Below, in pieces: positions 3,649 through 42,326 of a stretch of 64,000 nucleotides of DNA. Source of the DNA: Escherichia phage PSD2002; the sequence record OK335775.1; one strand, 5' to 3'. Each line of letters opens with the position of its first letter. Position 1 is the stretch's first letter. The translations under genes and the position numbers were made by a program. Under the pieces are notes generated by a model. The model had not been told where the DNA came from and ran no database searches. It was given only the letters and a program-made list of their open reading frames with translations.

Positions 3649-3966
3649 ATGAAAACCATCGACTGTAAAGCAGAATATAAAGTGTATTACCATGGAAGTT
3701 GTAGTGTCGCTAATATCGGTAATATGCTTTGTCCTCCTGAGGAAACAGGAGTTCTGTCTGAAACCGGTCGTAAGAAAAACCTAAATCGTGTGTTCTTTAC
3801 TGAAGATATCGGTTTGGCTAAGATTTATGCCGGACGTGCAGCTCGTTCAGTGGGAGGAGAACCCCGTCTTTATCGTGTAATTGCTCCGGTGGATGTGGTT
3901 TGTTTAAATGATACTAAAGGCGCTACGGTTTATCATGCTGAATGGGCCTTCTGCGAGGAAATCTAA
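3649..3966 (+). CDS. Hypothetical protein, possible minimal ART-like fold
   Basis: ATG at 3649 preceded by GGAGAA; ORF track start at 3637 is a TTG inside the 5' UTR. Contains YYHGS ... KIYAG ... EWAFCEE. Own early promoter upstream. Confidence 0.5.
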   Translation: MKTIDCKAEYKVYYHGSCSVANIGNMLCPPEETGVLSETGRKKNLNRVFFTEDIGLAKIYAGRAARSVGGEPRLYRVIAPVDVVCLNDTKGATVYHAEWAFCEEI

Positions 3967-4161
3967 ATGTCTGAATCAATTAAAGTAAAATTTGTCGGCC
4001 ATTTCGCCAACGGTGATACCGCTACCAAAGAAGCTTCAGTGCGTGAAAACGATATCGTGTGGGTGACTACCCAATTCGCTGAAGTAAATAATATTTTGGT
4101 TAAGGCGTATGTCGACGACGTAGAAGTTTATGAACATGATGCCCGTATTGAGGAAATCTAA
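3967..4161 (+). CDS. dmd: Candidate Dmd (discriminator of mRNA degradation; antitoxin against RnlA/LsoA)
   Basis: 64-aa ORF in the 41-61 interval where T4 encodes dmd; pattern VKVKFVGHF...WVTTQFAEVNNILVKAY resembles the remembered T4 Dmd sequence. Not verifiable without alignment. Confidence 0.4.
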   Translation: MSESIKVKFVGHFANGDTATKEASVRENDIVWVTTQFAEVNNILVKAYVDDVEVYEHDARIEEI

Positions 4162-4302
4162 ATGGAAGAATTTGAATGTGTAGTATGTGGTTGTTCGGTC
4201 TGTGAAGACCAGGCAGTATTTGATGCTTGGGACAACGCAACCTGTTTAGACTGTGACAGCGAATTCGAAGAAATTGCTCATAAACATGAAGGCGAGGAAT
4301 AA
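4162..4302 (+). CDS. Small Cys-rich (zinc-ribbon-like) protein
   Basis: 46-aa ORF with SD GAGGAA, fills the gap between neighbours; CVVCGC...C...CLDC cysteine pattern. Confidence 0.35.
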   Translation: MEEFECVVCGCSVCEDQAVFDAWDNATCLDCDSEFEEIAHKHEGEE

Positions 4303-4542
4303 ATGAATATCGTACTAATGAAACCAACTCCTAGCTCTTTTTGGAATAAATCTTTCGGTAAGCATAATATGTTTATCCAACGTACCGTAAACAACTGGGA
4401 ACTAGTTCTTTCAGTGGGCCACAACGATTATGAACAAGAATACGTAGAGTTCTTCGAATTTCCTGTGAAGCCCACTAAGCGTCAGATTCGTCAGACAAAA
4501 CGTAAATTCCGTAAAATTTCTTTGGAAGATTCATTAAAATAA
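4303..4542 (+). CDS. Hypothetical small protein with basic C-terminal tail
   Basis: 79 aa; SD GGCGAGGAA upstream; C-terminal PTKRQIRQTKRKFRK motif shared with ORF 5330..5551. Confidence 0.45.
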   Translation: MNIVLMKPTPSSFWNKSFGKHNMFIQRTVNNWELVLSVGHNDYEQEYVEFFEFPVKPTKRQIRQTKRKFRKISLEDSLK

Positions 4543-8907: not shown

Positions 8908-9117
8908 ATGTTAAATCGTTGGATTAAACCAAATAAATCTTTGGATGAAATTATCGCTAATCATGTATTGAAAAAGTACTTTTATACTCCTTGGTATACC
9001 GAAGTTATTGTCCATTCATTTATGATGCATGAAGACGGTTCTATCGAATTTAATGCCGAAATCCGTCACGAGACTGATGATATCGATAAAGTTGAATTTA
9101 AACGAGGTTTCCTATGA
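8908..9117 (+). CDS. Hypothetical small protein
   Basis: ATG 8908 after AGAGGAG; the ORF-track start at 8872 lies in the promoter -10 region. Confidence 0.4.
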   Translation: MLNRWIKPNKSLDEIIANHVLKKYFYTPWYTEVIVHSFMMHEDGSIEFNAEIRHETDDIDKVEFKRGFL

Positions 9118-9437
9118 TTCGTTGGCTTAAGAATTTTTTCAAGACCAAACCTGGTGAAGGGGTGGTTCCTATCTCAGGTCTGAAGGAATATGTTTATGTG
9201 GGCGATGGTATGATGGAAGAAGTTATCCGTCAACCTGAAAAAGCAGGTAATGTAGGCCCGGGTGCCCTTCCTTTGAATTCTAAAAAGTTTAAAGAGCATC
9301 TAGAAGCTCGTCGCACAAGCCATATTGATACTACTCCTATTATGGTTGCGGCTGCTGTCAGTTCTTGGACTGGTGATTCTTCTTATTCGTCTTATGACTC
9401 AGGAAGCTGTGACTCATCGTCCGGCTCGTGTGATTAA
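9114..9437 (+). CDS. Hypothetical protein with Ser/Cys-rich C-terminal tail
   Basis: 107-aa ORF; C-terminus SSWTGDSSYSSYDSGSCDSSSGSCD. Confidence 0.45.
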   Translation: MIRWLKNFFKTKPGEGVVPISGLKEYVYVGDGMMEEVIRQPEKAGNVGPGALPLNSKKFKEHLEARRTSHIDTTPIMVAAAVSSWTGDSSYSSYDSGSCDSSSGSCD

Positions 9438-9637
9438 TGAAACCTTTATCATGGCTTAAAGATTGGCTGGACCGTCCTGGTGATTATCTTGATGACGGGT
9501 GGTTGGACCAAGCTAATGCAGAAATGAAACGCGAGTCCGAAGAATGGATTCTTAAAGGTATCCGTGAAGAACGCGAAAAGAAATTAGAACGCGAAGCTCT
9601 TAGAATTATGCGTGACATCTATGGGGATAAATCATGA
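9437..9637 (+). CDS. Hypothetical small protein
   Basis: 66-aa ORF in tight array with neighbours. Confidence 0.4.
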
Positions 9638-9801
9638 CTACTGAAGAGGCCGAAAAACAAGCTAAAGAGGCACTGGATTTGCTTCTTAAAATTGGTAGTA
9701 AAATGATGAAAGAAAACGAGAAATACATCCAAGAAAATAAAATTCCGGATGGTCCTTTAGTAGGTAAACTAAGAAGAGGAAATCATAATGAAAGTTTATG
9801 A
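9634..9801 (+). CDS. Hypothetical small protein
   Basis: 55-aa ORF below the track cutoff, start overlaps the previous stop; fills an otherwise non-coding interval. Confidence 0.3.
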
Positions 9802-10276
9802 ACTAGAATTCTTTGTTCGTGATTCTGCCGGACAAACGCGTCCTTATGATGCTACGGCGTGTCTTATCCTTGTCGATAATGGTACGAATTCTATAACCCA
9901 GCTAGAAACACGATTAAAAGATATTAAGCCACCAGAAAATATTCTAATGAAGGCATATCATAATAAAAATGTTGATGTTGCTGAGGGTTGTCCTTTTAGC
10001 CTGGCTGAAGCATTACATATCAAGGGTTATCGCCATCCGGACCCGTATGGCGAAGGAACAATGGACATTTTCTATAAAGATACCGATAGAATGTCCAACG
10101 AACGTCTTAAAGGTCGTACTTATCTTATTTCCGCTACCGAAGACCTTATTGAAGTTGAACGTCAGATTTGGAAGCACTTTGATATTGGATTGCGCTTTAC
10201 CATGACTGAAGACGCTATTCGTGATGCTAAGGTACGAGCTCGTATGTACGAGTACGGTCCTATCGGTGGTTACTAA
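9788..10276 (+). CDS. Hypothetical protein (occupies the mrh position of T4)
   Basis: 162-aa ORF with SD AGAGGA; assignment by position only. Confidence 0.45.
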
Positions 10277-10464
10277 TGGACTTATTTGATATGTTTGTCA
10301 TTCCGGACCCTGAGCCTGAAACAACTCAGGAGCCGCCTGTTGACCTTGTCAATGAACTTGATATGATTATACAGAAGCACGGTTTTAAGTTGCCTAAAGA
10401 TGCTCTTAGCGACCTTGCTTCTTATTACTTAGACCCTCCTCCATGGGCCCCTTGGGTAAAATAA
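10276..10464 (+). CDS. Hypothetical small acidic protein
   Basis: 62-aa ORF. Confidence 0.4.
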   Translation: MDLFDMFVIPDPEPETTQEPPVDLVNELDMIIQKHGFKLPKDALSDLASYYLDPPPWAPWVK

Positions 10465-10519
10465 AGTTTTACACCTCCTCCCTTCATGTTATAATGACCT
10501 CTAAATCACTGGAGGTCAT

Positions 10520-11089
10520 ATGAACATCGAACAAAAATGTCTTTATCAAGACCGAATCAATTCCAAATTCTCAAAACACGAACAGAATCTTTTAGAAAAA
10601 TGTCTAGATGCTAAAAAGGACCCTAACTTCCATTACGACCTTGATAAGCTAGTTCGTAAGCATGTTACTTCAGCGGTTCCGGTAGAGCTTTATCGTGGGA
10701 TTACCGCTATGGAACTTGAGCAACTTGAAGTTCTTTCTGTTGGGTGCCAGTGGTCTCCTGGCCGGGTTACTTCTTTTAGTACACAATACTCACAGGCTCG
10801 TCAGTTCGCAGGGGCATGGGAATATGGAACCAGAACCATTTTAAGTCTCAGGAATGCACCGTTCATTTTCGACTACTATAACCATGCTATCGACCTTGTT
10901 CTTGCAGGGAATGTGGATGAGCTTGAAATAGATGAAACCCGTATTGACCTCTATGATATGGTTGAAACTGAATGCGAGTTCATGGTCTCCAGCCAATCAC
11001 GATTTGAGATTGTGGAAATCGAAACCGTCAAAAGAGACCCGTACGAAATCGAGTATAAAACAATTCATTTAAAAATGTTGGATTTTTAG
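10520..11089 (+). CDS. ADP-ribosyltransferase, ModA/ModB-like
   Basis: 189 aa; R-S-E class ART signature LYRG ... SFSTQ ... ECEF in correct order and spacing; located between soc and dda where T4 encodes modA/modB. Confidence 0.6.
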   Translation: MNIEQKCLYQDRINSKFSKHEQNLLEKCLDAKKDPNFHYDLDKLVRKHVTSAVPVELYRGITAMELEQLEVLSVGCQWSPGRVTSFSTQYSQARQFAGAWEYGTRTILSLRNAPFIFDYYNHAIDLVLAGNVDELEIDETRIDLYDMVETECEFMVSSQSRFEIVEIETVKRDPYEIEYKTIHLKMLDF

Positions 11090-11143
11090 TTTACAGGCAA
11101 GGAAGCTTGTGGTACTATCTTTCTACCAACTGAGGAGAATAAT

Positions 11144-11758
11144 ATGTTATATCCGAGCCATAAATTAGCAGAATTTATCAACAACGCTAAATGCGATGAT
11201 TTCCGTGAGAATACTCAGATAGAAATTGATGAGGTGTATTCTGATTTAGAACAGAGTACCCTCTGGCAGTGCATGGAAAATAAACCAGATTGTATCCAGG
11301 AAACTCTGAACAAAATCATCCGTAAGAACCTGACTTCTGTAGTGCCTGATAAGCTCTATCGCGGCATATCTAAAAAGACTATGAAGTATCTAGAGTCCAC
11401 AATGTGTGTAGGTGCCGTAATTGAATTCGACCGAGTAATGAGCTTCTCTAAAGACTTCAACGTGGCAAGGAATTTTGCATCTTATAACTTCTATGGAACA
11501 TTTAATATCTTTTGTATTAATGATGCGCCATTTGTGTACAATTATCAGGAAGAAATCTTTAAAATGTTATGTGCTGCGCCCCCTGAAGAGTTCCCAGGCG
11601 CATTTCCTGAATCTACCCGTGTAGCAAACTTACAATTAATCAATGATGAAGATGAGATGATGTTCCCTGCGGGAACTACGCTGCGCGTAGACTCTATTGA
11701 GAGAAATCCTAAATGGAATAATTACACCATTTGGAATCTTTCCGTTCTTTCTTACTGA
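11144..11758 (+). CDS. ADP-ribosyltransferase, ModA/ModB-like paralog
   Basis: 204 aa; LYRGI ... MSFSKD ... DEDEMMF; shares the NAPF(I/V) and LYRGI blocks with the upstream ORF. Confidence 0.6.
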   Translation: MLYPSHKLAEFINNAKCDDFRENTQIEIDEVYSDLEQSTLWQCMENKPDCIQETLNKIIRKNLTSVVPDKLYRGISKKTMKYLESTMCVGAVIEFDRVMSFSKDFNVARNFASYNFYGTFNIFCINDAPFVYNYQEEIFKMLCAAPPEEFPGAFPESTRVANLQLINDEDEMMFPAGTTLRVDSIERNPKWNNYTIWNLSVLSY

Positions 11759-11827
11759 ACCACCCGGTTTAATTGAAAGGCAAAGTCCTTGATTCATTAT
11801 ACCGTCGAAAATTTAAAGCAAAAAAGT

Positions 11828-11856
11828 GTTTACTTTATCGAGTAACTTGATACTAT
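11828..11856 (+). promoter_or_regulatory. Early promoter
   Basis: GTTTAC-N17-TACTAT. Confidence 0.55.
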
Positions 11857-11882
11857 AGACATATCAACCAATCGTCCGTAAG

Positions 11883-12629
11883 ATGAGAAATATCATGACT
11901 ACTGAATTTGAGTTAAAGGTTTACAAACGTCGCGAACACACTAAAGCCTCTGCCAAAAAACGTGGTAAGGACTTTAACCTGTCTAGTAAGTATGTTCGTA
12001 GACTTCTTGAACAAAAAGTGTGTGCATATTCAGGCGAACGTTTTGATGAGAATTCAGTTAGTGATAAGATTTCATTTGAACGTTTTAATAATGATATTGG
12101 TTATATCGAAGGTAATGTAATCCCAGTTAAAGTCAAGTACAATAGCTTACGTGCTGATTTGTCTTTAGATGAATTGAAACGTGCACAGACTCGTTTAGCG
12201 TCCCGTATTTCAGGTGGTTCTAAAATGCCTAATAGTTTTAAAGTTACCCCAGATAATTATTATAAAATTCGTAAAATAGTTAAAAATATTAAAGATACCC
12301 AAAGAGGTCTTAAAAAGCGTGAAAAACGTCTTAAGGACCTTATTAAATCAGGAGCTACTGATAAGACCCCTTCCGTCATCGCGGTTAAAGCTCGTATCCA
12401 TGGTTCTAATGCTTCAATTGGTACTATGGAAAAAGGTCTTAAATCTTTAATCGGTGGGCCTGATTGGCGCGTCAAGTTTAAATTGTCTGAAGCAGAAACG
12501 CGTTACGATATGTATGATAAAATTATTCAAGGTCTGGAGCGTTTAGAACACCTTTCTTTTATTGACAAAATGAAGTTGAAAAAAGGTCTTCCACTGAATG
12601 CTTCAATTTTTTCACTGATTAGAGGTTAA
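11883..12629 (+). CDS. Hypothetical protein (srd position)
   Basis: 248-aa ORF between the ART pair and dda; own early promoter at 11828-11856; identity assigned by position only. Confidence 0.45.
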   Translation: MRNIMTTEFELKVYKRREHTKASAKKRGKDFNLSSKYVRRLLEQKVCAYSGERFDENSVSDKISFERFNNDIGYIEGNVIPVKVKYNSLRADLSLDELKRAQTRLASRISGGSKMPNSFKVTPDNYYKIRKIVKNIKDTQRGLKKREKRLKDLIKSGATDKTPSVIAVKARIHGSNASIGTMEKGLKSLIGGPDWRVKFKLSEAETRYDMYDKIIQGLERLEHLSFIDKMKLKKGLPLNASIFSLIRG

Positions 12630-12630
12630 C

Positions 12631-12930
12631 GTGATGTACTATGCATACGTATTAGTTCACAAGGACAAAGATGGATATGAAATTCCATTAGAAGAGGCAG
12701 GTGAAGTGACTTTGTATTCGACAAAGATCGGAGCCGACACAGCTCTATCTGATTATGAAATGACAACAAAAAGATATCTTCGGCTTGGACGCCTTGAAAC
12801 GGTGTGCACACCTAGAAAATGGTGGTTTGATAAGCGGGAAACTAAAACAGTATATCCTACCGAAGAACGAGCCCGAGAACTTAAATTAGTTTTAGACACT
12901 TTATATGTTAAGCGAGTAAAATTGGCATGA
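12631..12930 (+). CDS. Hypothetical protein (dda.1 position)
   Basis: 99-aa ORF immediately upstream of dda. Confidence 0.45.
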   Translation: MMYYAYVLVHKDKDGYEIPLEEAGEVTLYSTKIGADTALSDYEMTTKRYLRLGRLETVCTPRKWWFDKRETKTVYPTEERARELKLVLDTLYVKRVKLA

Positions 12931-14258
12931 TTACATTTGAAGACTTGAACATCGGCCAGAGGACGGCCTTTAAAGAAATCATTGAAGCTATTAAACGACG
13001 TAAGGGTGAATGGATTACATTGAACGGTCCAGCCGGTACAGGTAAAACAACCCTTACCAAATTTATTCTTGACCATCTAGTCAAGAATGGTGAACTCGGA
13101 GTTATTTTGACTGCACCCACTCATGCGGCCAAAAAGGTATTGTCGAAACTCGCAGGTCAAGAAGCATCAACAATCCATAGAATCTTAAAGATTAACCCTA
13201 CCACATACGAAGACCAGGACATCTTTGAACAACGCGAAGCTCCTGACTTGAGCAAATGTAACGTTCTGGTTGTTGATGAAGGCTCGATGATTGACGGTAA
13301 GCTGTTTAAGATTATCGAATCTTCAGTGCCACCATGGTGTACTGTATTAGGGATTGGCGACAGAGCTCAGCTACAGCCAGTGGAACCTGGAAGTGATGGT
13401 AGTCCACAGTTGTCTCCGTTCTTTACCCATCCAAAAATCAAGCAATTGCATTTGACCGAAGTAATGCGTAGCAATGCTCCAATCATTGAGGTTGCTACTG
13501 AAATCCGTAATGGCGGATGGTTTAGAGATTGTGTATTCGAAGGACATGGTGTCCATGGTTTTAAATCTCAAACTGCTTTAAAAGATTTTATGATGAATTA
13601 TTTTTCCATTGTAAAAGACGCGGATGCCTTATTTGAAAATAGGATGTTTGCTTATACAAATAAATCGGTTGAAAAGCTGAATAGCATTATTCGTAAAAAG
13701 CTTTATGAAACCGATGCACCTTATATCAAGGGTGAAATCCTGGTGATGCAAGAGCCTTTTATGAAGGAACTTGAATACGATGGTAAGAAATTCTCTGAAA
13801 CCATTTTTAATAACGGTCAAATGGTTCGTATTCTGGATGTGAACCACACCTCATTGTTCTTGTCTGCTAAGGATGTAGGCACTCGACAAATGATTAATTA
13901 CTGGGACCTGCAAGTAGAATCTATCGATGAAGATGATGAGTATTATGTAGAGCATTTAAAGGTTATCGATGAGGCTTCGGTTGAGAAGTTCCATTATTTC
14001 TTGGCTAGGGTTGCTACTGAATACAAAGCCATGCGTGGAACGGGTAAGAAACCTAAGTGGGCTGATTTTTGGAAAGCTAAGAGAATGTTTACTAAGGTTC
14101 GAGCTCTTCCTGTGAGCACTGTTCATAAATCCCAAGGACTTACAGTCCAAAACAGTTTCATCTATACTCCATGCATGCATATGGCTGATGCGAATTTAGC
14201 TTCACAGCTGGCTTATGTTAGTATTACTCGTGCTCGTACTGACGCCTACTACGTTTGA
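12927..14258 (+). CDS. dda: Dda SF1 DNA helicase
   Basis: 443 aa; Walker A GPAGTGKTT, helicase motifs; strong match to T4 Dda as recalled. Confidence 0.95.
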   Translation: MITFEDLNIGQRTAFKEIIEAIKRRKGEWITLNGPAGTGKTTLTKFILDHLVKNGELGVILTAPTHAAKKVLSKLAGQEASTIHRILKINPTTYEDQDIFEQREAPDLSKCNVLVVDEGSMIDGKLFKIIESSVPPWCTVLGIGDRAQLQPVEPGSDGSPQLSPFFTHPKIKQLHLTEVMRSNAPIIEVATEIRNGGWFRDCVFEGHGVHGFKSQTALKDFMMNYFSIVKDADALFENRMFAYTNKSVEKLNSIIRKKLYETDAPYIKGEILVMQEPFMKELEYDGKKFSETIFNNGQMVRILDVNHTSLFLSAKDVGTRQMINYWDLQVESIDEDDEYYVEHLKVIDEASVEKFHYFLARVATEYKAMRGTGKKPKWADFWKAKRMFTKVRALPVSTVHKSQGLTVQNSFIYTPCMHMADANLASQLAYVSITRARTDAYYV

Positions 14259-31323: not shown

Positions 31324-31599
31324 ATGACTAAAATTGAAATTGTTTCCGAAATTGCTACTATTGTTTCCATTTTGATTAAAACGGATTGTGAAGACATCAT
31401 GCAACGTCGTGATGAGTTTATTGCCTTTTTGAATGAGTTGGGTATTCGTAATGAACATGGAAAGGAACTTAATGGTTTGTCTTATAACAAATTATTTAAG
31501 TCATTAACTGAAGATGAACGTGACACTCTTATTGAGCAATTTAATGAAGGGTATGAAGATATACACCGTTACTTAATGATGTATACCTCCAATTTCTAA
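31324..31599 (+). CDS. asiA: AsiA anti-sigma70 factor
   Basis: 91 aa; ...VSILIK...FIAFLNE...NEGYEDIHRYLMMYT matches T4 AsiA as recalled; convergent with holin t. Confidence 0.85.
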   Translation: MTKIEIVSEIATIVSILIKTDCEDIMQRRDEFIAFLNELGIRNEHGKELNGLSYNKLFKSLTEDERDTLIEQFNEGYEDIHRYLMMYTSNF

Positions 31600-32249
31600 C
31601 GTGTTCGACCTAATGTCCTCCCAGCCTGACCGCACATAGACGAAAGTCTAGGAAATCCTAAATCCGGTTTGATATCATACCAGTACAACGATATCGAGCC
31701 GGCGTAGACGTTATCCAAATTAAAAAACGGGCACGAAAACATATACGTGAATTGTGTTTTCTTCTTTGTAGGAAGGAATACAGTTTCGGTACTTGATTCA
31801 AAATAGTTCCCGTTAACTCCCGCCATATATTCTACTGACGTTTTGTCAATTGGAAACCCTCCCGTATTTTTTGCGTCTACCGTTTCCGGTAATTTACCCT
31901 CGTAAGCAACCATATCCACAAAATAATTCATGTTGGTTGGTCTAAAAGAATATATTGCTGTGAAGTCTGCGCCTGAAGAAGAATGCACTATTCGGAGCTG
32001 CTCGATAGCCGCAATTTTAAATCTATTGTCCTGGTCTTGTCTAATCATTTCAGTATAAGAGGCATAAGTAGTCTCTTTATAAAAGTTTAGAATATACTCG
32101 CCTTTATACCAAACCAATGCCATAAAGAACAATAATACCACGACTAGGACCCGGGAAAAAACTACTTTCCCGGAAGAAGTATCTTTAAAAATTCTATCAA
32201 GAAGTCCAAAAAGTAGGTCTGATAATGATATTCCTACTTTTGGTTCCAT
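31596..32249 (-). CDS. t: Holin T
   Basis: 217 aa; single N-terminal TM segment with large periplasmic domain; size and position (after gene 38) as T4 t; late promoter upstream. Confidence 0.85.
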   Translation of the reverse strand: MEPKVGISLSDLLFGLLDRIFKDTSSGKVVFSRVLVVVLLFFMALVWYKGEYILNFYKETTYASYTEMIRQDQDNRFKIAAIEQLRIVHSSSGADFTAIYSFRPTNMNYFVDMVAYEGKLPETVDAKNTGGFPIDKTSVEYMAGVNGNYFESSTETVFLPTKKKTQFTYMFSCPFFNLDNVYAGSISLYWYDIKPDLGFPRLSSMCGQAGRTLGRTR

Positions 32250-32267
32250 ACTTTTCTCCTTTAAAGA

Positions 32268-32275
32268 TATTTATA
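32268..32275 (-). promoter_or_regulatory. Late promoter TATAAATA for holin t
   Basis: TATAAATA on - strand followed by SD AGGAG and the t start codon. Confidence 0.6.
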
Positions 32276-32286
32276 GCGCTTATGTA

Positions 32287-33081
32287 CTATAGCCAGGAAC
32301 CGTAGATAACACCTGTATTATGCCAAGTAGGAGAACTTCCAGCAACAGCAGCTCCTGCGCCGCCACCAGCGCCGACTTTTAGAACTTTACCACCATCAGA
32401 CCATGCATTCTGACCTGCGCCGCCAGCATCGCCACCCTGACCAGAGTGAGCATTTCCGTATTGATAACCACCTCCTGGACTATCCAAAGAAGCTCCGCCA
32501 CCTGAATATCCACCACCACCGCCTGGGCCAAATGGTCTTCCTCCACCACCGCCAATATCTTGCCAGTTTGCACCAGAGTGAGGACGATAAGCGATACCAC
32601 CGCCGCCACCGCCACCGCCGCAGATAACCCCACCATTATTAATTCTTAAACGACCGCCAATATCATTTACAATACAAGTTCCACCCAATTGGCCGTTGCC
32701 ATCGCCGCCCGAGTGGGTCCATCCACCTTGACCACCTCGGCCCCATATATGAACCCCACCACCAATATTCAATTGAACATATTCGTTTGGAGTATCCCCA
32801 TACATAAAGAACAATGGAACATCACGGGTATAAGATACTAATGTATCTGTAAGATTAAACACAATAGGCGCACTACCGGCTTCAAAGCAACGGTCGCGGA
32901 ACCATTGCCCATTAAAGTTATGGTCCCCACCTAAAGTATGAATTACTTCAACAGACCGACCGTTCATATTACTCATCCAAAACGGAATACCCATTCTCAA
33001 TCGCTGGGCGGCGCCGCCCATCCAATTTTGTCCTGTATTAGCTACTGCAGACGATCCTACCCACGGTCCTCCAACTGCCAT
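32287..33081 (-). CDS. 38: Gp38 tail-fibre adhesin, T2-type with glycine-rich motifs
   Basis: 264 aa from ATG 33081 (SD GGAGG; the ORF-track start is a TTG 12 nt upstream); conserved N-terminal domain and C-terminal polyglycine tracts (GGGGGGGG, GGGGG) separating variable segments. Confidence 0.85.
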
Positions 33082-33112
33082 ATAAACCTCCAAGGGGCCT
33101 AAGCCCCTCTTA

Positions 33113-36100
33113 TTATTTTAACAATGATTTAATTAGTGCTTTAAGTTCTTCAATCTCTGATTTCAATTCTGCTATTTCTGCAGTGTGCTCATTGATTGCA
33201 GCTGTATTTAAACCAATTACACCGTTATAGTTTAAACGAAGTAAAGCTTCACCGTCAGGGTCGCCTTCAACCAATTCAGGTAAAATAGCTTGAACTTCTT
33301 GAGCAATTAAACCAGCATTAGGTTCCCATTTCTGATTACCTTCTTCATCCAGGCCACGTTTCTGCATATAAGTGTAACCGTTAATTTTTGAAAGTGTTTG
33401 TGAAGCATTTTCAAATTTAACAAGGTCTTTTTTAACACGAATATCAGAACGAACATAAACATCACGAACAAATGTCGAATAGCTATCGTTTGCCTGAACT
33501 AAATGGCCGTGAGAAATAATTGCTCTGCCAACTTCTGTCCAAAAAGATCCATTTGAATCCCAAAGGCCCGGATGAGATTGATACATTGTACCCCAGCTTG
33601 CAATATGTACACTATTAGCAACCATATTGATTCGGCCGTCACCGCCGTGTGATAATCCTGTGTCGTTATCACCAATAGCAATACTAGGAGAGCCTAATCC
33701 ATTAACAGTACCAACACCAATTGCAGGAGTCTGGACTAAAGACGGGGCGTAAAATAAACCACTAGAGTGGAATTCGAAAATACCTACAGGACCGTTGCCA
33801 TTTTCCTGGTTACCAACACGAATTATAGCTTGTCCCCATGTTTGTGGAGTACGACGCATACCGAAATCAACACCTGATATGTATCCTTCGTTAGTAATAC
33901 CAGATTTTCCTTTGATAATCGGATAATAACTATCATTACCGACGTTGCCAAAATCCACAAATACAGGAGCTTCTAAACCCCATTGGTCACCCCATGCACC
34001 AGATTGATGAGCCACCCATTGTGCAGCCTTTATATAAAGTCGGTCCCTATTAAAATAAAAAGTATCCGACCCCTGAGGAGCTAAACCAACTTCTCCACTA
34101 TTATGAATATTAACGCCTGAATTAGTTTGGAAACTATAAAACGATAAGTTGTTATCAGCGCCGCCATTACCAACATACCAGTTATTAACGCCTGCTTTTT
34201 GTCCTTTCACATAACCAGATTCGGTTGCAGCACTGTTAATAACAATAGCATCCGAGTTTGCATTAAGAGTTAAGCGGCCTGTCATTGTGTCGCCTTCTTT
34301 AGAAACACGGCTATAGACAGCACCAAGAAGATTGGTTACATCACCGGCAGAAGTAAACGTTTTCCAGATATCAGACCAGATGTTACCATTTTTGGCAATA
34401 GTAGCTTCACCACCGCCAACCTGCACGTTATCCGGGAAATTAACTGTACCATCAGCATTAAATCTTGATGTATGACCTTGGGTCCCGTCTTCTTTGTAAT
34501 GATGCAAAACAAAAGTCCCGGAATTAATTTCAGTACCTAAAGACCAAACAGCTTTTCCTTGTAAGAATTTCTGCTTAACAATAGGATAATATTTACTTAC
34601 CGCGTCATCATCAATTTCTTGGAAAACAGGAGCTGCTTGTGCATATTGAATATCATAACCACCCGCACCGGCGCCGTGTCCACCGAATTTAATATAACCG
34701 TTTGCTGCAAAAGAAGCATAACTCAAATCTAAGTCAGGAATAACTACCTTACCATTACTTAAATCTATACTTAAAGGACGAAGTGGCCCTATATCGCCGG
34801 TTTTACCTTCACCAAAGGCGGTAGGAATAATATGTAGGCTTGTTTCTGAACGGCGGAAAATGGCGCCGTAGTCATCATTCCAAATTCTAAGAGCATTGAC
34901 AGCATTACCAGCAATAGTGCCGGAGGCGTTAACTTCTTTACCGACATTTATGCTTTCGTTTACATTCATGCCACCATTTAAATGGGCTTCAACTTTGTCA
35001 TCGGTTTTGCGCTGAATATACCACATCCAACTAGTGGCATCAGATATTTCCATTACGTTTTTGCGGTCACCAGCGACATTAGTAAAGGTATTACCCCAAA
35101 CGCTGATAGTCATATTATCAACTGAACTACTTCCTGTTGTATTTCCTCTGAACATAAGAGTCGAAGCGTTGTTGCGGCCATCAATATTAACCGAACCACC
35201 AACAACATCAATATTACCAGGAGTAACTAACAAACCACCAGCGGTGTTAACGTTTGTAGTACCCTTACCACGGAAATAGTGGTGATAATTGCCACCTTGA
35301 TAATAACCTAAAAGAGTTTGACCGTCACCATACGCGTTATTATCATGATAAGTGACAACCGTCGCCAAAGCATAGTTTTCCGACGGAGGAGTGGTTAAAT
35401 CGGTACCGTTTACAGAATAACCCATAACCATTTTTCTAAGACTGGTGGTTTCTGCAGGGCCGTACAGGAAAGTTCTCGTGCCGTTATTAACGCTGAAATA
35501 ATATCCATCCTGATGCCATTTTAACCCGGTGTCATTATCGCCAAGAGCAATTGAAGCCGTTCCTAATTCAGAATATCCTTTAGAGTCGCCTGGGGTGCCT
35601 ACAGAAATAGAATGACCAGCTTTCAATCCGCCAGACCAGGTAAACGACCAAAGATAAGCTTCTAAGCCATCTCCAGCATACCAGGTTATTCCATCACTAT
35701 CTTTAACTTCATGGAATATACGTGCTCCTACAGCATTTCGCATAACACGGAGGCGGTTAATAGCCGTTTCGCTTTCTGTCATTGGAGTGTTATTTGCTAA
35801 TGAATAGATATCATAATCGCCCGTCTTCTTCCCATTTGTAATAACTTTATCGGTCAAAATCTGAGGAGACGAAATAGATTTCCATGCTGATACTTCAGGT
35901 GAAGTAAATAGGCCACTGCCTGAAAATGCATAAGTGCTTTCGCTTGCAGTAGAATAATCCTGTACGCGAATATTAACTACTTGGTTAGTTGCTCCTGCAT
36001 TATTAGGAGAAAAAATAATACCACGCTCACGGTCATCGCCATCAAAGAAACGAAGATGAGAAGTTGAGGCACTCTTAGAAATAAGTTCACCACCGTGGGT

Positions 36101-36415
36101 CATAATCTGCCCGGCGGCAATAATATCGCGAGTTACTCGAGCAATACCATTGAGATTGAAATCACCAATTTGAGTAAATACACCATTAAGTGTATAATCA
36201 CCGGTTTGATTGTAGTTACCGGTATGAATAACATTGCCGTCAATATTACCACCTTTAGCAAAGCCAAGGTCAATGATGGCACCGGTGTCGTCTTTAGTAA
36301 AAAGTAAACGGTCCTTTAAGTTAATAGCCAGTTCGCCTTCAGCCAACTGGGCTGGTGCCGGACGTACACCAGCTACTTTACTTCTTTTAAATTGGATTTG
36401 CTTTAAAGTAGCCAT
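33113..36415 (-). CDS. 37: Gp37 long tail fibre distal subunit with C-terminal intramolecular chaperone domain
   Basis: 1100 aa; N-terminus [13 protein letters not shown] matches T4 gp37; C-terminal ~120 aa resemble the autoproteolytic intramolecular chaperone of T2-type fibres. Confidence 0.95.
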
Positions 36416-36423
36416 AATGCCTC

Positions 36424-37071
36424 TTAATAATAACCAAAATCTTGAATAGAATCTTTAATAACAATCTGGTCAAAACGAGGAACGTGTCCTGCGTCAGAGG
36501 CCGGATTCAGCGAAATAAAGTTAGGAGCAGCAAGTACTCCGGTCATTGTTTGCATGTTAGTATTATTTATTTGGACTTGTTTTGCGTTATCTACTAATGG
36601 CAATCCGACTTGGGCTTTAGTAGGGGTGTTGCCTGGGCTGAATACGCGGCCAGATTCATCGTATACCTGACGGAATAATGAATCACCCATTACGGTAAGT
36701 CGTTTAGCACCAACTGCTGTATTCGGGTCAAATATTATAAATGGAGTACCGTTTTCCGTTTCATATCCAAAAGCGCCTTTAATACGGAAAGAAGCCGTGA
36801 ACGGTGCTCCACCAGTTCTTGTTCCTAATTTAATACCGTATCCATTAGTATCATTAAAGGTCAGCCCTTTTTCAAAATACACGTTATTCTTATAATTGCC
36901 GCCGTTTGCTTTTGAAACAAAGTCGTTATCAGCGGCTTGTGGTTTATTATATTCGGTATAAACTTTATATGTTTTGTAAAGAAGGTCATTTGATACAGGC
37001 GTTAAGGGAAAATTACCTTGGTGCCATAATACTGAACCTCCTGCTGTAGAACCTAATTTTAAATCTGCCAT
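36424..37071 (-). CDS. 36: Gp36 long tail fibre distal connector
   Basis: 215 aa; N-terminus MADLKLGSTAGGSV.WHQGNFPL and C-terminus HVPRFDQIVIKDSIQDFGYY match T4 gp36. Confidence 0.85.
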   Translation of the reverse strand: MADLKLGSTAGGSVLWHQGNFPLTPVSNDLLYKTYKVYTEYNKPQAADNDFVSKANGGNYKNNVYFEKGLTFNDTNGYGIKLGTRTGGAPFTASFRIKGAFGYETENGTPFIIFDPNTAVGAKRLTVMGDSLFRQVYDESGRVFSPGNTPTKAQVGLPLVDNAKQVQINNTNMQTMTGVLAAPNFISLNPASDAGHVPRFDQIVIKDSIQDFGYY

Positions 37072-37118
37072 TTGAGTTTCCTTTGGGAGTTATAGCCTTT
37101 TATATATTTATGGCCGTA

Positions 37119-37146
37119 GAAAACGAAAAAGGAACCCGAAGGTTCC
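37119..37146 (-). terminator. Terminator between tail-fibre genes 35 and 36 (possibly bidirectional)
   Basis: GGAACC-CGAA-GGTTCC hairpin flanked by T/A runs on both sides, directly downstream of the gene 35 stop. Confidence 0.6.
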
Positions 37147-38268
37147 TTAATATTTTTCTCTAAATTCAGCGACCCAAACCTGACCAGGTTTAGTGCCTGT
37201 TTTATCATATAGCTGGGCTATGGTAGTACCCATATTTTTAGTTTCCGTACCAAAGTTCATACGAATACCGTTAACACCAAATTCAGCAGGTTTTGGCTGA
37301 GGTTCTGATTCAGATATCTCACCGAACATAACATTTCGAACTCCGCCTTGGCCAGCCGAAGCTGTTTTTCTGGCATAAAGAGTAAAGTCTGTAGTACCTT
37401 CAGGAACCATTACTACCCGTTCAAATGTCATCCATGCACCAGCAGGAACGTTGGAAGGAACGTCCATATTAACTGTCCCAGTTAAAGCACCTGAGGCATT
37501 AAAAAATCTAACAGACATCTGAGAGGTCCCGACGTCTTTTAAAGCTTGGTCATACATTAATTGAAACTTAAGGTAAAAGAATTCACCTGGCTTCATGTTA
37601 TAATCTGTTAATGGGGTGGTAGGAGATTCGGTAGGAAATCGCTTAATTTCATCTCCCTCATTGCTTAGATAAGTGCTTTCGTCTTCAACAATTCTGACAG
37701 GATATCCTGTACCACCGACGTCGCTGATATCATCAAATACCACTTCTAATGGAGTAGAAACATCTTCGACAAGCACCCCATCATTATAAAGCACATGTTC
37801 CATTACTATAGCATTCCTTCCTGAAACATAAAATGCAGAATAAGATGGCTCAAACCGGTCTATTAACCATTTAGTAGGGAATGCGGTACTTCCTGCTGCA
37901 CGGAACCAATCGATAAGTTTTTGTGAAGCATTTAATCTACCAGAAGATACTAAACAAACTATTCTATTGGCCGGTATAGAATTTATATACGTTATAAAAG
38001 CTTCAGAAATAACATCAAAATCTTTTGTAAAACTATAAGTTTTGTTAGCCACTATTTTAGGTTCAGCACTAACATCAATTTCTATAAGGTTTAATCCATT
38101 TTGAAAATTCTGGGAACCGAAGTTCCCATCTTGAAATTTAACATATGCTTTTGTGGTAGACTTAGTACAACTACCCGCTATACTAAGTTTATACCTTACA
38201 GCATTGTTTTCAGATAATGTAGGAACCTGGACATATCCTTGTCCAAATTCTGCCATAAATCTTTCCAT
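37147..38268 (-). CDS. 35: Gp35 long tail fibre hinge
   Basis: 373 aa between 34 and 36; size and position as T4 gp35. Confidence 0.8.
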   Translation of the reverse strand: MERFMAEFGQGYVQVPTLSENNAVRYKLSIAGSCTKSTTKAYVKFQDGNFGSQNFQNGLNLIEIDVSAEPKIVANKTYSFTKDFDVISEAFITYINSIPANRIVCLVSSGRLNASQKLIDWFRAAGSTAFPTKWLIDRFEPSYSAFYVSGRNAIVMEHVLYNDGVLVEDVSTPLEVVFDDISDVGGTGYPVRIVEDESTYLSNEGDEIKRFPTESPTTPLTDYNMKPGEFFYLKFQLMYDQALKDVGTSQMSVRFFNASGALTGTVNMDVPSNVPAGAWMTFERVVMVPEGTTDFTLYARKTASAGQGGVRNVMFGEISESEPQPKPAEFGVNGIRMNFGTETKNMGTTIAQLYDKTGTKPGQVWVAEFREKY

Positions 38269-38276
38269 AATACCTC

Positions 38277-41200
38277 TTATTCAATCCACTCAAACTTAAC
38301 GGATTTAGTGACCGGGTCAGGAATAATACGAACGTTACCAATACGTAACCAATCAAGGATTGTAATGTTACCCATTGTAGCGTTATCAGCAGGCAATGCA
38401 CCAACCTCTTCCGCAGAAGGAGGGTTATCTGCCGTATAGACCATAGAGAACGTAGTCCATGCGTTTTTATTTTTCTGCCAGGTACGTGTATAACGAATAG
38501 TACCACCATTCAGTCCTGTAGGATAGCACACCCAATCCTGATAACATGAATCCAATGTATTACCAAACTGAGTTAACGTACCAGGATATTTAACTTCCTT
38601 ATCACGAACAGAATAATCAAACCAAGTACCACGTAATTTCTGACCTGATGTACCGAGAACCTCGTCACCAAAACTACCGTCTTCGTTACGATAACGAATA
38701 GCCGGAGAACTAAATGCACCCGTTTCTGTCAACCAACCAGAAGCATTCCATATCTCATCAGAAACACCGGCAGGTTTAGTTTGGACCGTATCAATATTAA
38801 CCTGACGTTTAGTTTTCATCGTCCAATAACCAGGGAACAGGTTAAATGTAGCCGAATCATTGATATCGACAGACCAGAAGCCAACGGTTTCTGCAGTAGG
38901 GGCCTGCGATGCTAATGTAGGTTTAACACCAACAGAGCGGACGTATTTTTGAGCAACCAAACCATTATTTGCCGATACCTGTCCGGTGGAAACGATAGTA
39001 CCTGAAGTAGTTACGTTTTGCAATGAAGACAGAGCAGAAGCATTTAATGTAGTTGTAGAAACACCGTTAGAAGTGGTTATACCTGTGATATTAGCATTCT
39101 TAGAAATACTAATGGAACCACTATTAACAGCAAAGTCACCAGTCGTATTAAAGGTCCAGTAGAAAGATTCTAAAGAACCCGGCGATGGAAGATAATGTAT
39201 TTTAAAATCACGAGTTCCGTCGTTTACAGTGCCTAAAGAGAATGTACCTTGCCCTAAACGTTGTTTAACAATAGGATGGAACTTGGCATCCGGGGTCGAA
39301 TTTATCTCGGCAAAAATCGGAGCTAAAGTATCACCTTGAGAGTTCCAAGTACCTGCACCAGATTGGGGTCCTACAAATTTAATAGATTTACCTGAGCTAA
39401 CAGATACATCATTTTTAAAAGTAGAATTTCCAGTTACTTCTAGAGAACCTAAAATAGTGTTGCCGGTAATATTAGCCGTACTAGAAGACACTAGAGGAGC
39501 GGCCAGGTTCAATTGTTTTGTCAACGTTAAAGAACCATTAACCGTTTGGTCAACGTCTCTACGAATGAACTGGAGTGAATCTAGGCCATCCAATTTCTCG
39601 GAGTTCACAGCCGTAGCATTTATAGGTAAAAAGTTCTGTAAAGTTTTATTCATCTCGTAAGATGAAACCGCATAACCTGTTTTAGGGTAGTTAGCTGCGT
39701 TCAGAACAGTATCGTCGTTCTCATAAAGGCCTGTACCTGAGTTAAATTTAACACCAGAACCGGTAACTTTATTTCCTGAATAGGTTAAAGCACCTTCGGT
39801 TAATTTAACAAATCCACGACGAAGTGCAGTAGCTTCCCAAGTAGTTTCGGTCTGTACTACATATTTTAAACCAGAAGGGCTTACAGCCAAAACTTTAGAA
39901 GTTCCTGCGGTTGTTTCGGTATTGGTTGCAACACGAATAATACCTTCAGAACTTTCAGTAGATTTTTTAGAGTGTAATTTCAAAGGAGTGATGATGGTTT
40001 TGTCATCAGTACCAACGTTGACTTCGGTCTGGGTCGCCAGGCGAGCAGTACCACGTTGAGTCTCATTTGCTTCTCTAATATCTAGTGTATAATGGTTCCA
40101 TAAGGTTCCTGATTCAACCAAACCACTGGCTGCTGAGACAGAAGTTCTAGCAGTATCATTAAATCTTGTTTTAATTTTCAACGGAGTTGAAATAACATTA
40201 TCTAACGTACCTGCATCAAATTCTACCTGTGTTGCAATTCTAGCAATACCAGTCAATCCTTCCATAGCTTTCCTATCATTTAACGTCTTAGGCGTTACCG
40301 CACGAGTATAATCTGTTCCAGTATCAGTTTCCTGTTGCGTAGCAATTTCAATTAACCCTGTACGAGTATCAAGAGCCACACGAGCATGTAATGTTTCCGG
40401 AGAAACAGCACTGTTGGCAAATCCACTTGCCGATTGGCCTGCGTTAACTTCAGATTGGTTAGAAAGATATACCGTACCCTGTTGAACTTGGGTAGCTTTA
40501 TACTGGTCAAGAGCTTTAGGAGAAATAACCAAATTGCCTACGTTCTTATTATAAACGTTAGTACCTACGGTGTCCCTAGCAGTCGCAGGAGTGGTTCCTA
40601 CAGTAGAGGTATATGTTACAATACCTGAAAGACTTTCCGAACCCTGGCGCGCTTGTAGCTTCTTAGGAGTGATGATTGTAGTATCATCTATACCAGCATC
40701 AGTTTCAACTTGCGTAGCAATTTCAGCAACACCACGACGAGTTTCGGTTGCAGTACGTTCGTTTAATTTCTTAGGAGAAATAATCAAATCGTCCTGGAAT
40801 GCGAAGGTTGTGTCCTGGTTCACCTGAGCAGTAGTAGCAATACGAGCAATACCACGACGAGATTCAGTCGCCACACGATTAGCTAAAGTCTGCGGAGTAA
40901 TTGCCAGTTCTTTTTCAGGATTATTTTCATGGTCAACGTTTGCTTGAGTCTGGGACGCAAGGGCAATAACACCTAAACGAGCACGAGTTAAATCATCTTT
41001 AGAATCCACACGTTCTATAGTAGGAACGTTCTGGGCAACAACCCAATATTTGCCACCTGTAGTGGTGTCTTCGATATAACTCAGTTCAATAACCGGAGTA
41101 TAACTTATATCGCCATTAAAGGTCAGTACATCATTCAATACCCATTCGGTTTCTGGTGGATATTCTGAACGTTTAGGGAATTGAAGCAATTGAACAGAAG

Positions 41201-42326
41201 AAGCAATCTTATCTCCTACAGCAGCCTTAATATTTACCGTCTGAGCTTTACGGAGATAGTTCAGAGCAATCTTAACGACATCACCCTGGGCTACGCCTGT
41301 AGGTAATGTGATATTAATCGTCTGCGGCGTGGTGTTATTAGGACCAAAAACAATAACGCTTTCGTTAGCCAAGAGTTCAACATCATCGCGAATTACACGT
41401 AAGCGAGTTTGAAGGTCGCCGTCCCAAACATACCATAATTTTTCGTTAGAGTTATAAACGAAGAATCCATCGCCTGAGGTACGGAATTCCATGCTATGCT
41501 GATCAGGTTTACCTAATGCAGACGAAGCATCAAACGTTTCAACGATTAAGTGGAACTTACTTCCTAAACCATCGATATCAACGGTTTTAATCATATCACC
41601 TTGGTTCGCATACTTAGGAAGAGTAAACTTAATTACTGCACCTGAAGTATAACGACGGAGAACATTATCACCGGCTTGAGCTTGGAACTGAGCGGTGTTC
41701 GGTTCTACACGAATACCACGTTCTTCGTTACCAGCTTCCCAGAAATGCCAAAGACGGTTAGCAAAGATAAGCATGTTATAAGAAAAAGGCTTCGTAATTA
41801 AGGTCTCAGTAAACTGATTACCAAAACGAACAATTTTCTGGTTACCACCACCAGGAGCAGAACTAGACTGAACCTTTATTTCGTTATAACCAACACGTCC
41901 ACCGATATCTTTAATTACAACGGTATCGCCGTCTGTAGGGTTAGGAGGCAAGGTAAATGTAGTAAAGCTAGCAGCGGAATCCACCGCAATATATTCACCA
42001 GAAGCCAGTTGGCGTGTAGGAGATGCTACGGTAATCCATTTAGGGTCCGTACGGGTAGCGGTCCAATAACCAGGTACAAAGGTTCCTGCCGGAGCATCGA
42101 TATCGCGTTGAGCAACCCAGATACGTTGGTCATGGATTACGGCGAACCCTTTCTTATATCCACGCGTCTCGTCGTACGCCTGGATGGTGTTCTCATCTAT
42201 AAAGAATTCAACGTTGACGCCGTCGTCTAATACATTGTAATCGGCTTTGGCAACATTGATAACTTTCTCGCCTGCAGCATCGAGTCCGGATGTAGCACGG
42301 AAGGCAGGTTTTAAAATATCGGCCAT
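38277..42326 (-). CDS. 34: Gp34 long tail fibre proximal subunit
   Basis: 1349 aa; extensive identity to T4 gp34 as recalled (N-terminus, internal RGIARIATTAQVN repeats, C-terminus VKFEWIE); late promoter upstream. Confidence 0.95.
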   Translation of the reverse strand: MADILKPAFRATSGLDAAGEKVINVAKADYNVLDDGVNVEFFIDENTIQAYDETRGYKKGFAVIHDQRIWVAQRDIDAPAGTFVPGYWTATRTDPKWITVASPTRQLASGEYIAVDSAASFTTFTLPPNPTDGDTVVIKDIGGRVGYNEIKVQSSSAPGGGNQKIVRFGNQFTETLITKPFSYNMLIFANRLWHFWEAGNEERGIRVEPNTAQFQAQAGDNVLRRYTSGAVIKFTLPKYANQGDMIKTVDIDGLGSKFHLIVETFDASSALGKPDQHSMEFRTSGDGFFVYNSNEKLWYVWDGDLQTRLRVIRDDVELLANESVIVFGPNNTTPQTINITLPTGVAQGDVVKIALNYLRKAQTVNIKAAVGDKIASSVQLLQFPKRSEYPPETEWVLNDVLTFNGDISYTPVIELSYIEDTTTGGKYWVVAQNVPTIERVDSKDDLTRARLGVIALASQTQANVDHENNPEKELAITPQTLANRVATESRRGIARIATTAQVNQDTTFAFQDDLIISPKKLNERTATETRRGVAEIATQVETDAGIDDTTIITPKKLQARQGSESLSGIVTYTSTVGTTPATARDTVGTNVYNKNVGNLVISPKALDQYKATQVQQGTVYLSNQSEVNAGQSASGFANSAVSPETLHARVALDTRTGLIEIATQQETDTGTDYTRAVTPKTLNDRKAMEGLTGIARIATQVEFDAGTLDNVISTPLKIKTRFNDTARTSVSAASGLVESGTLWNHYTLDIREANETQRGTARLATQTEVNVGTDDKTIITPLKLHSKKSTESSEGIIRVATNTETTAGTSKVLAVSPSGLKYVVQTETTWEATALRRGFVKLTEGALTYSGNKVTGSGVKFNSGTGLYENDDTVLNAANYPKTGYAVSSYEMNKTLQNFLPINATAVNSEKLDGLDSLQFIRRDVDQTVNGSLTLTKQLNLAAPLVSSSTANITGNTILGSLEVTGNSTFKNDVSVSSGKSIKFVGPQSGAGTWNSQGDTLAPIFAEINSTPDAKFHPIVKQRLGQGTFSLGTVNDGTRDFKIHYLPSPGSLESFYWTFNTTGDFAVNSGSISISKNANITGITTSNGVSTTTLNASALSSLQNVTTSGTIVSTGQVSANNGLVAQKYVRSVGVKPTLASQAPTAETVGFWSVDINDSATFNLFPGYWTMKTKRQVNIDTVQTKPAGVSDEIWNASGWLTETGAFSSPAIRYRNEDGSFGDEVLGTSGQKLRGTWFDYSVRDKEVKYPGTLTQFGNTLDSCYQDWVCYPTGLNGGTIRYTRTWQKNKNAWTTFSMVYTADNPPSAEEVGALPADNATMGNITILDWLRIGNVRIIPDPVTKSVKFEWIE

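Follow-up and report, generated by a model that had tools for sequence, protein, structure and literature searches.

Results

A tandem pair of predicted ADP-ribosyltransferases in a T4-like phage

We examined two adjacent open reading frames (ORFs), ORF1 and ORF2, at positions 10,520 to 11,758 of a 64,000-nucleotide stretch of DNA from Escherichia phage PSD2002 (record OK335775.1; the whole stretch is termed the window). We propose, with a probability of roughly 0.85, that these are modB- and modA-slot genes encoding small single-domain, arginine-specific mono-ADP-ribosyltransferases of the R-S-E (cholera-toxin/C3-like) clade, with roles similar to those in T4. A first-pass annotation had described two adjacent ORFs of 189 and 204 residues as a ModA/ModB-like pair. 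The ORFs are present exactly as described, and homology, synteny, catalytic residues and predicted fold agree with the proposal, as do the labels of the counterparts in the Bp7 and IME08 records.

ORF1: 10520..11089, plus strand; 189 residues, ATG start; modB-slot ADP-ribosyltransferase
ORF2: 11144..11758, plus strand; 204 residues, ATG start; modA-slot ADP-ribosyltransferase

Both proteins match the phrog_832 family, 'RNA polymerase ADP-ribosylase' (ORF1, E = 1.2e-37; ORF2, E = 1.3e-44). The precomputed Pfam entry PF26816.1 is assigned to all 24 database homologues, and the homologues are named ADP-ribosylase or NAD--protein ADP-ribosyltransferase. ORF1 and ORF2 share 30% identity over 184 residues (BLASTP, E = 1e-25) and, by this comparison, are clear paralogues, as the annotation had supposed. 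Its description of the two as highly diverged is fair, but T4 ModA and T4 ModB are separated to the same degree (30% identity over 154 residues), so the divergence is not unusual for such a pair. Both ORFs fit the single-domain build of the Mod family, of ~170–240 residues. No further family member was found in the six-frame translation of the window using the family profile, the next match having E = 0.47. Small ORFs overlapping the pair (e.g. 10695-10844, plus strand; 10841-10996, minus strand; 11475-11624, plus strand) were dismissed as frame noise.

Relative to the counterparts in phage Bp7, ORF1 carries 9 and ORF2 14 non-synonymous differences, and the ratios of non-synonymous to synonymous substitution rates (dN/dS) are 0.056 and 0.110, respectively. 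Both are therefore maintained as coding genes under purifying selection.

Catalytic residues

We compared the catalytic motifs in two alignments, one of 26 homologues and, separately, one of 15 Mod proteins taken from the window and 11 phage genomes. ORF1 contains LYR59G, TS85FS87T and E151-C-E153-F, and ORF2 contains LYR73GI, MS100FS102KD and DE169-D-E171-MMF. The Arg, S-x-S and E-x-E elements thus stand in both proteins in the order of the R-S-E clade, where they belong to β1, β2 and β5 (ARTT), respectively, with every motif that the annotation had quoted in place.

ORF1 catalytic codons, plus strand: R59 10694-10696; S85 10772-10774; E151 10970-10972; E153 10976-10978
ORF2 catalytic codons, plus strand: R73 11360-11362; S100 11441-11443; E169 11648-11650; E171 11654-11656

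The residues correspond to those of the T4 enzymes as follows.

Arg-Gly: T4 ModB R73/G74; T4 ModA R72/G73; ORF1 R59/G60; ORF2 R73/G74
Ser: T4 ModB S99; T4 ModA S96; ORF1 S85; ORF2 S100
E-x-E: T4 ModB E171/E173; T4 ModA E163/E165; ORF1 E151/E153; ORF2 E169/E171

Both alignments are invariant at the Arg of the (L/M)(Y/W/F)RG motif, at the Gly that follows it, at the first Ser of S-x-(S/T) and at each Glu of E-x-E. The first-pass annotation had suggested alignment as a check, with absence of the catalytic Glu as the adverse outcome; the Glu matching T4 ModA E165 is present in all 15 Mod proteins and all 26 homologues. In the ADP-ribosylating turn-turn (ARTT) motif, E-x-E rather than Q-x-E predicts arginine specificity. 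In ModA and ModB, the Arg-specific motif has been described as R-S-EXE (PMC10468400). Mutation of these positions in the T4 enzymes abolishes activity: ModB carrying R73A,G74A no longer performs ADP-ribosylation or RNAylation (PMC10468400), and the ModA E165A mutant is catalytically dead (PMC11404850).

Predicted structures of ORF1 and ORF2

We used AlphaFold2 to model both proteins from the 26-sequence alignment, structure prediction having been another suggested check. The models are confident and full-length, with a predicted local distance difference test score (pLDDT) of 86.8 and a predicted template modeling score (pTM) of 0.82 for ORF1, and a pLDDT of 91.0 and pTM of 0.84 for ORF2. In each model, a helical bundle at the N-terminus precedes a mixed β-core. 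DSSP assigns the catalytic Arg and Ser to strands, and a further strand starts at the second Glu.

Foldseek comparison with the PDB gave 104 and 126 matches at E <= 1e-3 for the two models, and the best 50 matches listed for each are all R-S-E-clade ADP-ribosyltransferases. The matched transferases include Certhrax, C3bot, C3larvin, Plx2a, XopAI, HopU1, ExoS/T, Tre1, iota toxin, CDTa and VIP2, with E-values of 2e-7 to 1e-5, probability of 1.00 and template modeling (TM) scores of ~0.5. ORF1 matched Certhrax, C3, iota and VIP2 (E = 6e-7 to 1e-5), and ORF2 matched Certhrax, C3, Plx2a, XopAI, HopU1 and ExoS (E = 2e-7 to 7e-6). Among viral models (BFVD), ORF2 matched ModA/ModB entries with a TM score of 0.84. 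The models support an ADP-ribosyltransferase fold for both ORFs. PDB sequence searches, using the single sequences and the family profile, returned no significant relative, the best transferase-related match being the E-x-E segment of XopAI at E = 0.5; thus, only the fold comparison ties ORF1 and ORF2 to solved transferases.

Comparison with these structures indicates what is shared and what is particular to the Mod proteins. The fold is shared with C3bot (1g24), Certhrax (4fk7), iota toxin Ia (4h03), VIP2 (1qs1), XopAI (6kly) and HopU1 (3u0j), and the order of Arg, S-x-S and (E/Q)-x-E is common to the C3-like and binary-toxin transferases, although sequence identity between toxin transferases and Mod proteins is only 9–16%. 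The NEQEVLFP segment of XopAI aligns with the dEdEfmlP segment of the Mod family. The C3 enzymes use Q-x-E and target Asn, whereas the Mod proteins have E-x-E. A helix is predicted in the Mod proteins where the C3 enzymes have the ARTT loop, and the Mod proteins, unlike the C3 enzymes, begin with a phage-specific N-terminal helical bundle that contains an invariant Cys.

This Cys lies in an E-Q-x-x-L-x-x-C motif (C28 in ORF1, C43 in ORF2), outside the canonical transferase motifs. It is invariant in the 26 homologues and conserved in 14 of the 15 Mod proteins across genera, the Krischvirus copy having Val.

We considered whether one or both proteins could have lost catalysis, as relics or as pseudo-enzymes that work through binding instead. 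The grounds for this are generic, namely that activity is predicted from sequence and that the family evolves fast, together with the report that deletion of T4 modA has little effect on early shut-off (PMC2988021). However, the Arg, S-x-S and E-x-E elements are all intact and invariant, dN/dS is 0.06–0.11, and the models are full-length and confident, with no sign of truncation. We therefore regard loss of activity as very improbable.

Gene order and assignment to T4 ModB and ModA

The first-pass annotation placed the pair at the T4 ModA/ModB position, and the gene order is indeed collinear (modA.3, modA.2, modB, modA, srd, dda.1, dda). The order in the window is mrh.2, mrh.1, srh, modA.4, modA.3, modA.2, ORF1, ORF2, srd, dda.1, dda. 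T4 is collinear from mrh.2 to dda, with modB upstream of modA and modA adjoining srd; by position, therefore, ORF1 is in the modB slot and ORF2 in the modA slot. The arrangement between the mrh/modA.x genes and srd-dda is likewise collinear in Bp7, VR7 and Mosigvirus. The neighboring genes, all on the plus strand, are as follows.

modA.3 (Mrh-like): 9788-10276, plus strand; PF24070 T4_MRH, E = 9.8e-44
modA.2: 10276-10464, plus strand; with modA.3 the upstream context (phrog_1234; Bp7 and T4 annotation)
srd: 11883-12629, plus strand; phrog_1400 Srd, E = 4.8e-93
dda.1: 12631-12930, plus strand; collinear with T4
dda helicase: 12927-14258, plus strand; phrog_325 Dda, E = 3e-169, and Pfam SH3_14 Dda helicase domain

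In seven other phages the only Mod gene lies upstream of srd, directly so in six of the seven; in Klebsiella phage kv_tblp8, one small dmd-like gene lies between the two. Such single genes occur in Gelderland-, Kanagawa-, Krisch- and Tegunavirus and in several Klebsiella and Serratia phages.

Sequence comparison with the T4 enzymes clearly places ORF1 closer to ModB (BLASTP, 35% identity, E = 1e-24, 82.8 bits) than to ModA (24% identity, E = 8e-5, 27.3 bits). ORF2 aligns with ModA at 39% identity over 166 residues (E = 1e-25, 85.5 bits). T4 ModB (NP_049636, 207 residues), like ORF1, is the first of its pair, downstream of modA.2 and behind a conserved early promoter, and both are acidic proteins. 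ORF1 is the shorter by 18 residues, most of the difference being at the N-terminus, and lacks the insertion that precedes E-x-E in T4 ModB (KYTYEDTDGLD...), and the C-terminal 35 residues of the two are not aligned by BLAST. T4 ModA (NP_049635, 200 residues), like ORF2, is the second of its pair and lies immediately upstream of srd; its arginine motif reads LWRGV, against LYRGI in ORF2. Net charge and isoelectric point were tried as discriminators between ModA-like and ModB-like proteins and failed, all of the proteins being acidic.

We built a neighbor-joining tree from 191 columns with 300 bootstraps. One clade unites the downstream copies of Dhaka-, Gapriver- and Mosigvirus and a separate clade the upstream copies of Dhaka- and Mosigvirus, each with 100% bootstrap support, and the duplication therefore predates the Dhakavirus/Mosigvirus split. 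The VR7 upstream copy (2396-2956 of the VR7 stretch) groups at 85% bootstrap with the only Mod copy that Yersinia phage phiR1-RT has. It is 30% identical to ORF1, and the VR7 downstream copy is 67% identical to ORF2. Among the 14 other proteins, the best match of T4 ModA is ORF2 (36% over trimmed columns), with ORF1 at 23%.

Several results weigh against the proposal made at the outset. Pfam-A and NCBIfam scans returned nothing above cut-off for either ORF, with sub-threshold matches only to DRAT, ADPrib_exo_Tox and XopAI; the same holds for T4 ModA and ModB, and these scans therefore cannot decide membership. The PDB searches found no Mod protein among solved chains, so that the fold rests on predicted models. 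Identity to the characterized T4 enzymes is only 35% (ORF1 with ModB) and 39% (ORF2 with ModA). ORF2 matches T4 ModB (33% over 198 residues, E = 4e-27, 89.7 bits) as well as it matches ModA, and T4 ModB lies equally far from the two ORFs. T4 ModA and T4 ModB are isolated long branches in the tree, ModB having no supported join to the ORF1 clade, and the deep nodes are below 50% bootstrap; one-to-one orthology therefore rests on gene position and not on phylogeny. Finally, the region contains 11 promoter-like sites against a shuffle expectation of 13.1, which is not above chance, and the promoter assignments given below therefore rest on match quality and conservation. Taken with position, the best hits support ORF1 as ModB and ORF2 as ModA, an assignment for which phylogeny alone is insufficient.

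The ambiguity of ORF2 also bears on the division of labor. Both enzymes could be active but divide their tasks in a manner unlike T4, the ORF2 clade, that is the downstream copy of Dhaka-, Gapriver- and Mosigvirus, being a second ModB-like enzyme with targets of its own and no modification of RNA polymerase alpha; either copy might instead modify host defense proteins. Besides the near-equal bit scores of ORF2 and the unresolved deep nodes, with T4 ModA on its long branch, this would accord with naming elsewhere: the automatic annotation of phage fDHCT2 calls the pair modB_1 and modB_2, and a 79%-identical UniRef homologue carries the name 'modB'. The locus also turns over, as indicated by the different, phiR1-RT-like lineage in the VR7 upstream slot, and in many related genera one Mod gene suffices. 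On the other side, ORF2 is the best match of T4 ModA, the position next to srd is conserved, and the target in the alpha C-terminal domain, Arg265, is identical in E. coli, the host common to T4 and this phage. We consider this second ModB-like role for ORF2 distinctly unlikely.

The broader idea, that the pair in Dhaka-, Mosig- and Gaprivervirus partitions host targets differently from T4, seems to us somewhat less remote, though still improbable; the ambiguous affinity of ORF2 and the turnover of the upstream slot give it some room. For example, ORF2 may not be an alpha-specific ModA, or ORF1 may carry out RNAylation rather than, or as well as, ORF2. If so, the mod slot would not hold a fixed ModB/ModA pair but would be an effector locus that diversifies rapidly, with one lineage replacing another as for the VR7 upstream copy.

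Expression signals

We next give the signals upstream of each gene in support of early expression.

10468..10495, plus strand: early-type sigma-70 promoter-like site of ORF1; TTTACA, 16-nt spacer, TGtTATAAT (extended -10)
10511..10515, plus strand: Shine-Dalgarno GGAGG, 4 nt before the ORF1 ATG
11090..11118, plus strand: second early-type promoter-like site, within the 54-nt intergenic spacer; (G)TTTACA, 17-nt spacer, TGgTACTAT
11132..11137, plus strand: Shine-Dalgarno GAGGAG, 6 nt before the ORF2 ATG

The site upstream of ORF1 has 11 of 12 hexamer matches plus TGn before the -10. Its GTTTAC and TGnTAT(A/G)AT blocks are kept at the same place upstream of modB in Bp7, VR7, Mosigvirus LF82-7 and T4, so that the putative promoter is conserved in five phages. 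T4 early promoters have this -35/TGn/-10 architecture (PMC2988021). The second site has 9 of 12 hexamer matches with TG and is identical in Bp7; its extended -10 (TGATACTAT) is retained in Mosigvirus and weak in VR7. In T4, the modB stop and modA start overlap (ATGA, 4008-4011 of the T4 stretch compared) and modA has no promoter of its own; ORF2 instead follows a 54-nt spacer, also present in Bp7, whose promoter-like site and Shine-Dalgarno suggest that the second gene may be transcribed independently. From these signals we infer, on good grounds, that ORF1 and ORF2 are expressed early. Transcription would be expected to begin some 6-8 nt beyond the -10 hexamers, whose last positions are 10495 and 11118.

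A terminator-like hairpin at 11091-11112 was rejected, since it has just 3 G-C pairs, lacks a proper T-run and falls on the second promoter-like site.

Proposed mechanism

We propose that each gene would have a strong early promoter to itself, from which the sigma-70 RNA polymerase of the host, still unmodified, would transcribe it right after infection. The products would bind nicotinamide adenine dinucleotide (NAD+) through the Arg of strand β1 (R59 in ORF1, R73 in ORF2) and the S-x-S strand (S85/S87; S100/S102), and the E-x-E motif (E151/E153; E169/E171) would direct transfer of ADP-ribose onto arginines of host proteins. This NAD+-dependent arginine ADP-ribosylation we infer from E-x-E and from the biochemistry of T4 ModA and ModB.

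The host targets, above all, are read across from T4. T4 ModA modifies Arg265 of both alpha subunits, abolishing UP-element and CRP contacts (PMC2988021). T4 ModB modifies S1, EF-Tu, trigger factor and L2, and attaches NAD-capped RNAs (PMC10468400). By analogy, the target of ORF2 would be Arg265 on both RNA polymerase alpha subunits, and its modification would shut down transcription that depends on UP elements or activators. ORF1 would act on S1, EF-Tu, trigger factor and L2, and NAD-capped RNA might serve it as a further substrate (RNAylation). The suggestion in the first-pass annotation that the divergence of the two proteins reflects distinct targets is plausible on the same analogy.

Relatives and prior annotation

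The 3.3-kb stretch around the pair is 95.6% identical in DNA to Escherichia phage LHE83, 95.7% to C6, ~94.5% to Bp7, QL01 and WG01, and 93.1% to IME08. Bp7 is classified as Dhakavirus and the matching phages are all T4-like coliphages; by these identities, the window is Dhakavirus-type T4-like coliphage DNA. ORF1 is 99.5% identical to the LHE83 'ADP-ribosylase' and ORF2 100% identical to the fDHCT2 phage protein (tblastn). The Bp7 (AEN93835/AEN93836) and IME08 records name the counterparts of ORF1 and ORF2 modB and modA, and other records use 'ADP-ribosylase', 'RNA polymerase ADP-ribosylase' or 'NAD--protein ADP-ribosyltransferase'. The Dhakavirus ModB and ModA of Bp7, IME08, LHE83 and fDHCT2 are essentially the same genes as ORF1 and ORF2, with few substitutions. 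A Mod family member occurs in ~1,067 of 50,697 phage records, with roughly 1,700 Mod copies in all, and the main hosts of these phages, judged by record names, are Escherichia, Klebsiella, Shigella, Enterobacter, Yersinia and Salmonella.

The pair is thus real, ordinary and already known: near-identical proteins are deposited and labeled, and a ModB/ModA pair is a classic T-even feature. As found, it matters little, being a textbook feature annotated in near-identical genomes. Its comparative value is modest and lies in natural variants of T4 ModA and ModB, 30–39% identical, that share the same host. Such variants could help to map the residues that set target choice and the use of NAD-capped RNA, a question stated as still open for the T4 enzymes (PMC10468400).

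Other features of the window

The 124-nt spacer between ORF2 and srd (11759-11882) contains a T4-early-like element, GTTTACTTTATCGAGTAACTTGATACTAT, at ~11828-11856, just below the scan threshold, and also two weaker promoter-like sites at 11773-11800 and 11856-11884. On this evidence, srd too probably has its own promoter. The srd gene encodes 248 residues from the ATG at 11883, equal to the length of T4 Srd, whereas the Bp7 record gives only 221 residues (3698-4363 of the Bp7 stretch compared). Because the window and T4 agree at 248, the start codon of the deposited Bp7 srd was probably placed too far downstream.

Upstream of the pair, mrh.1 (9114-9437) is followed directly by srh (9437-9637) in the window and in Bp7, whereas T4 has mrh between them; the sole Mrh relative present in the window is the paralogue modA.3 (9788-10276). 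The mrh.1-like ORF (9114-9437, 107 residues) ends in a low-complexity C-terminal tail rich in Ser, Cys and Asp (…SSWTGDSSYSSYDSGSCDSSSGSCD). Scans for tRNA genes and Rfam families found none anywhere in the window.

Further downstream, a minus-strand block at 31596-42326 contains large ORFs of 1349, 373, 215, 1100, 268 and 217 residues, which we tentatively take, from the T4 gene order, to be the long-tail-fiber genes 34-38. The GC skew reverses at ~32-42 kb, coinciding with this block.

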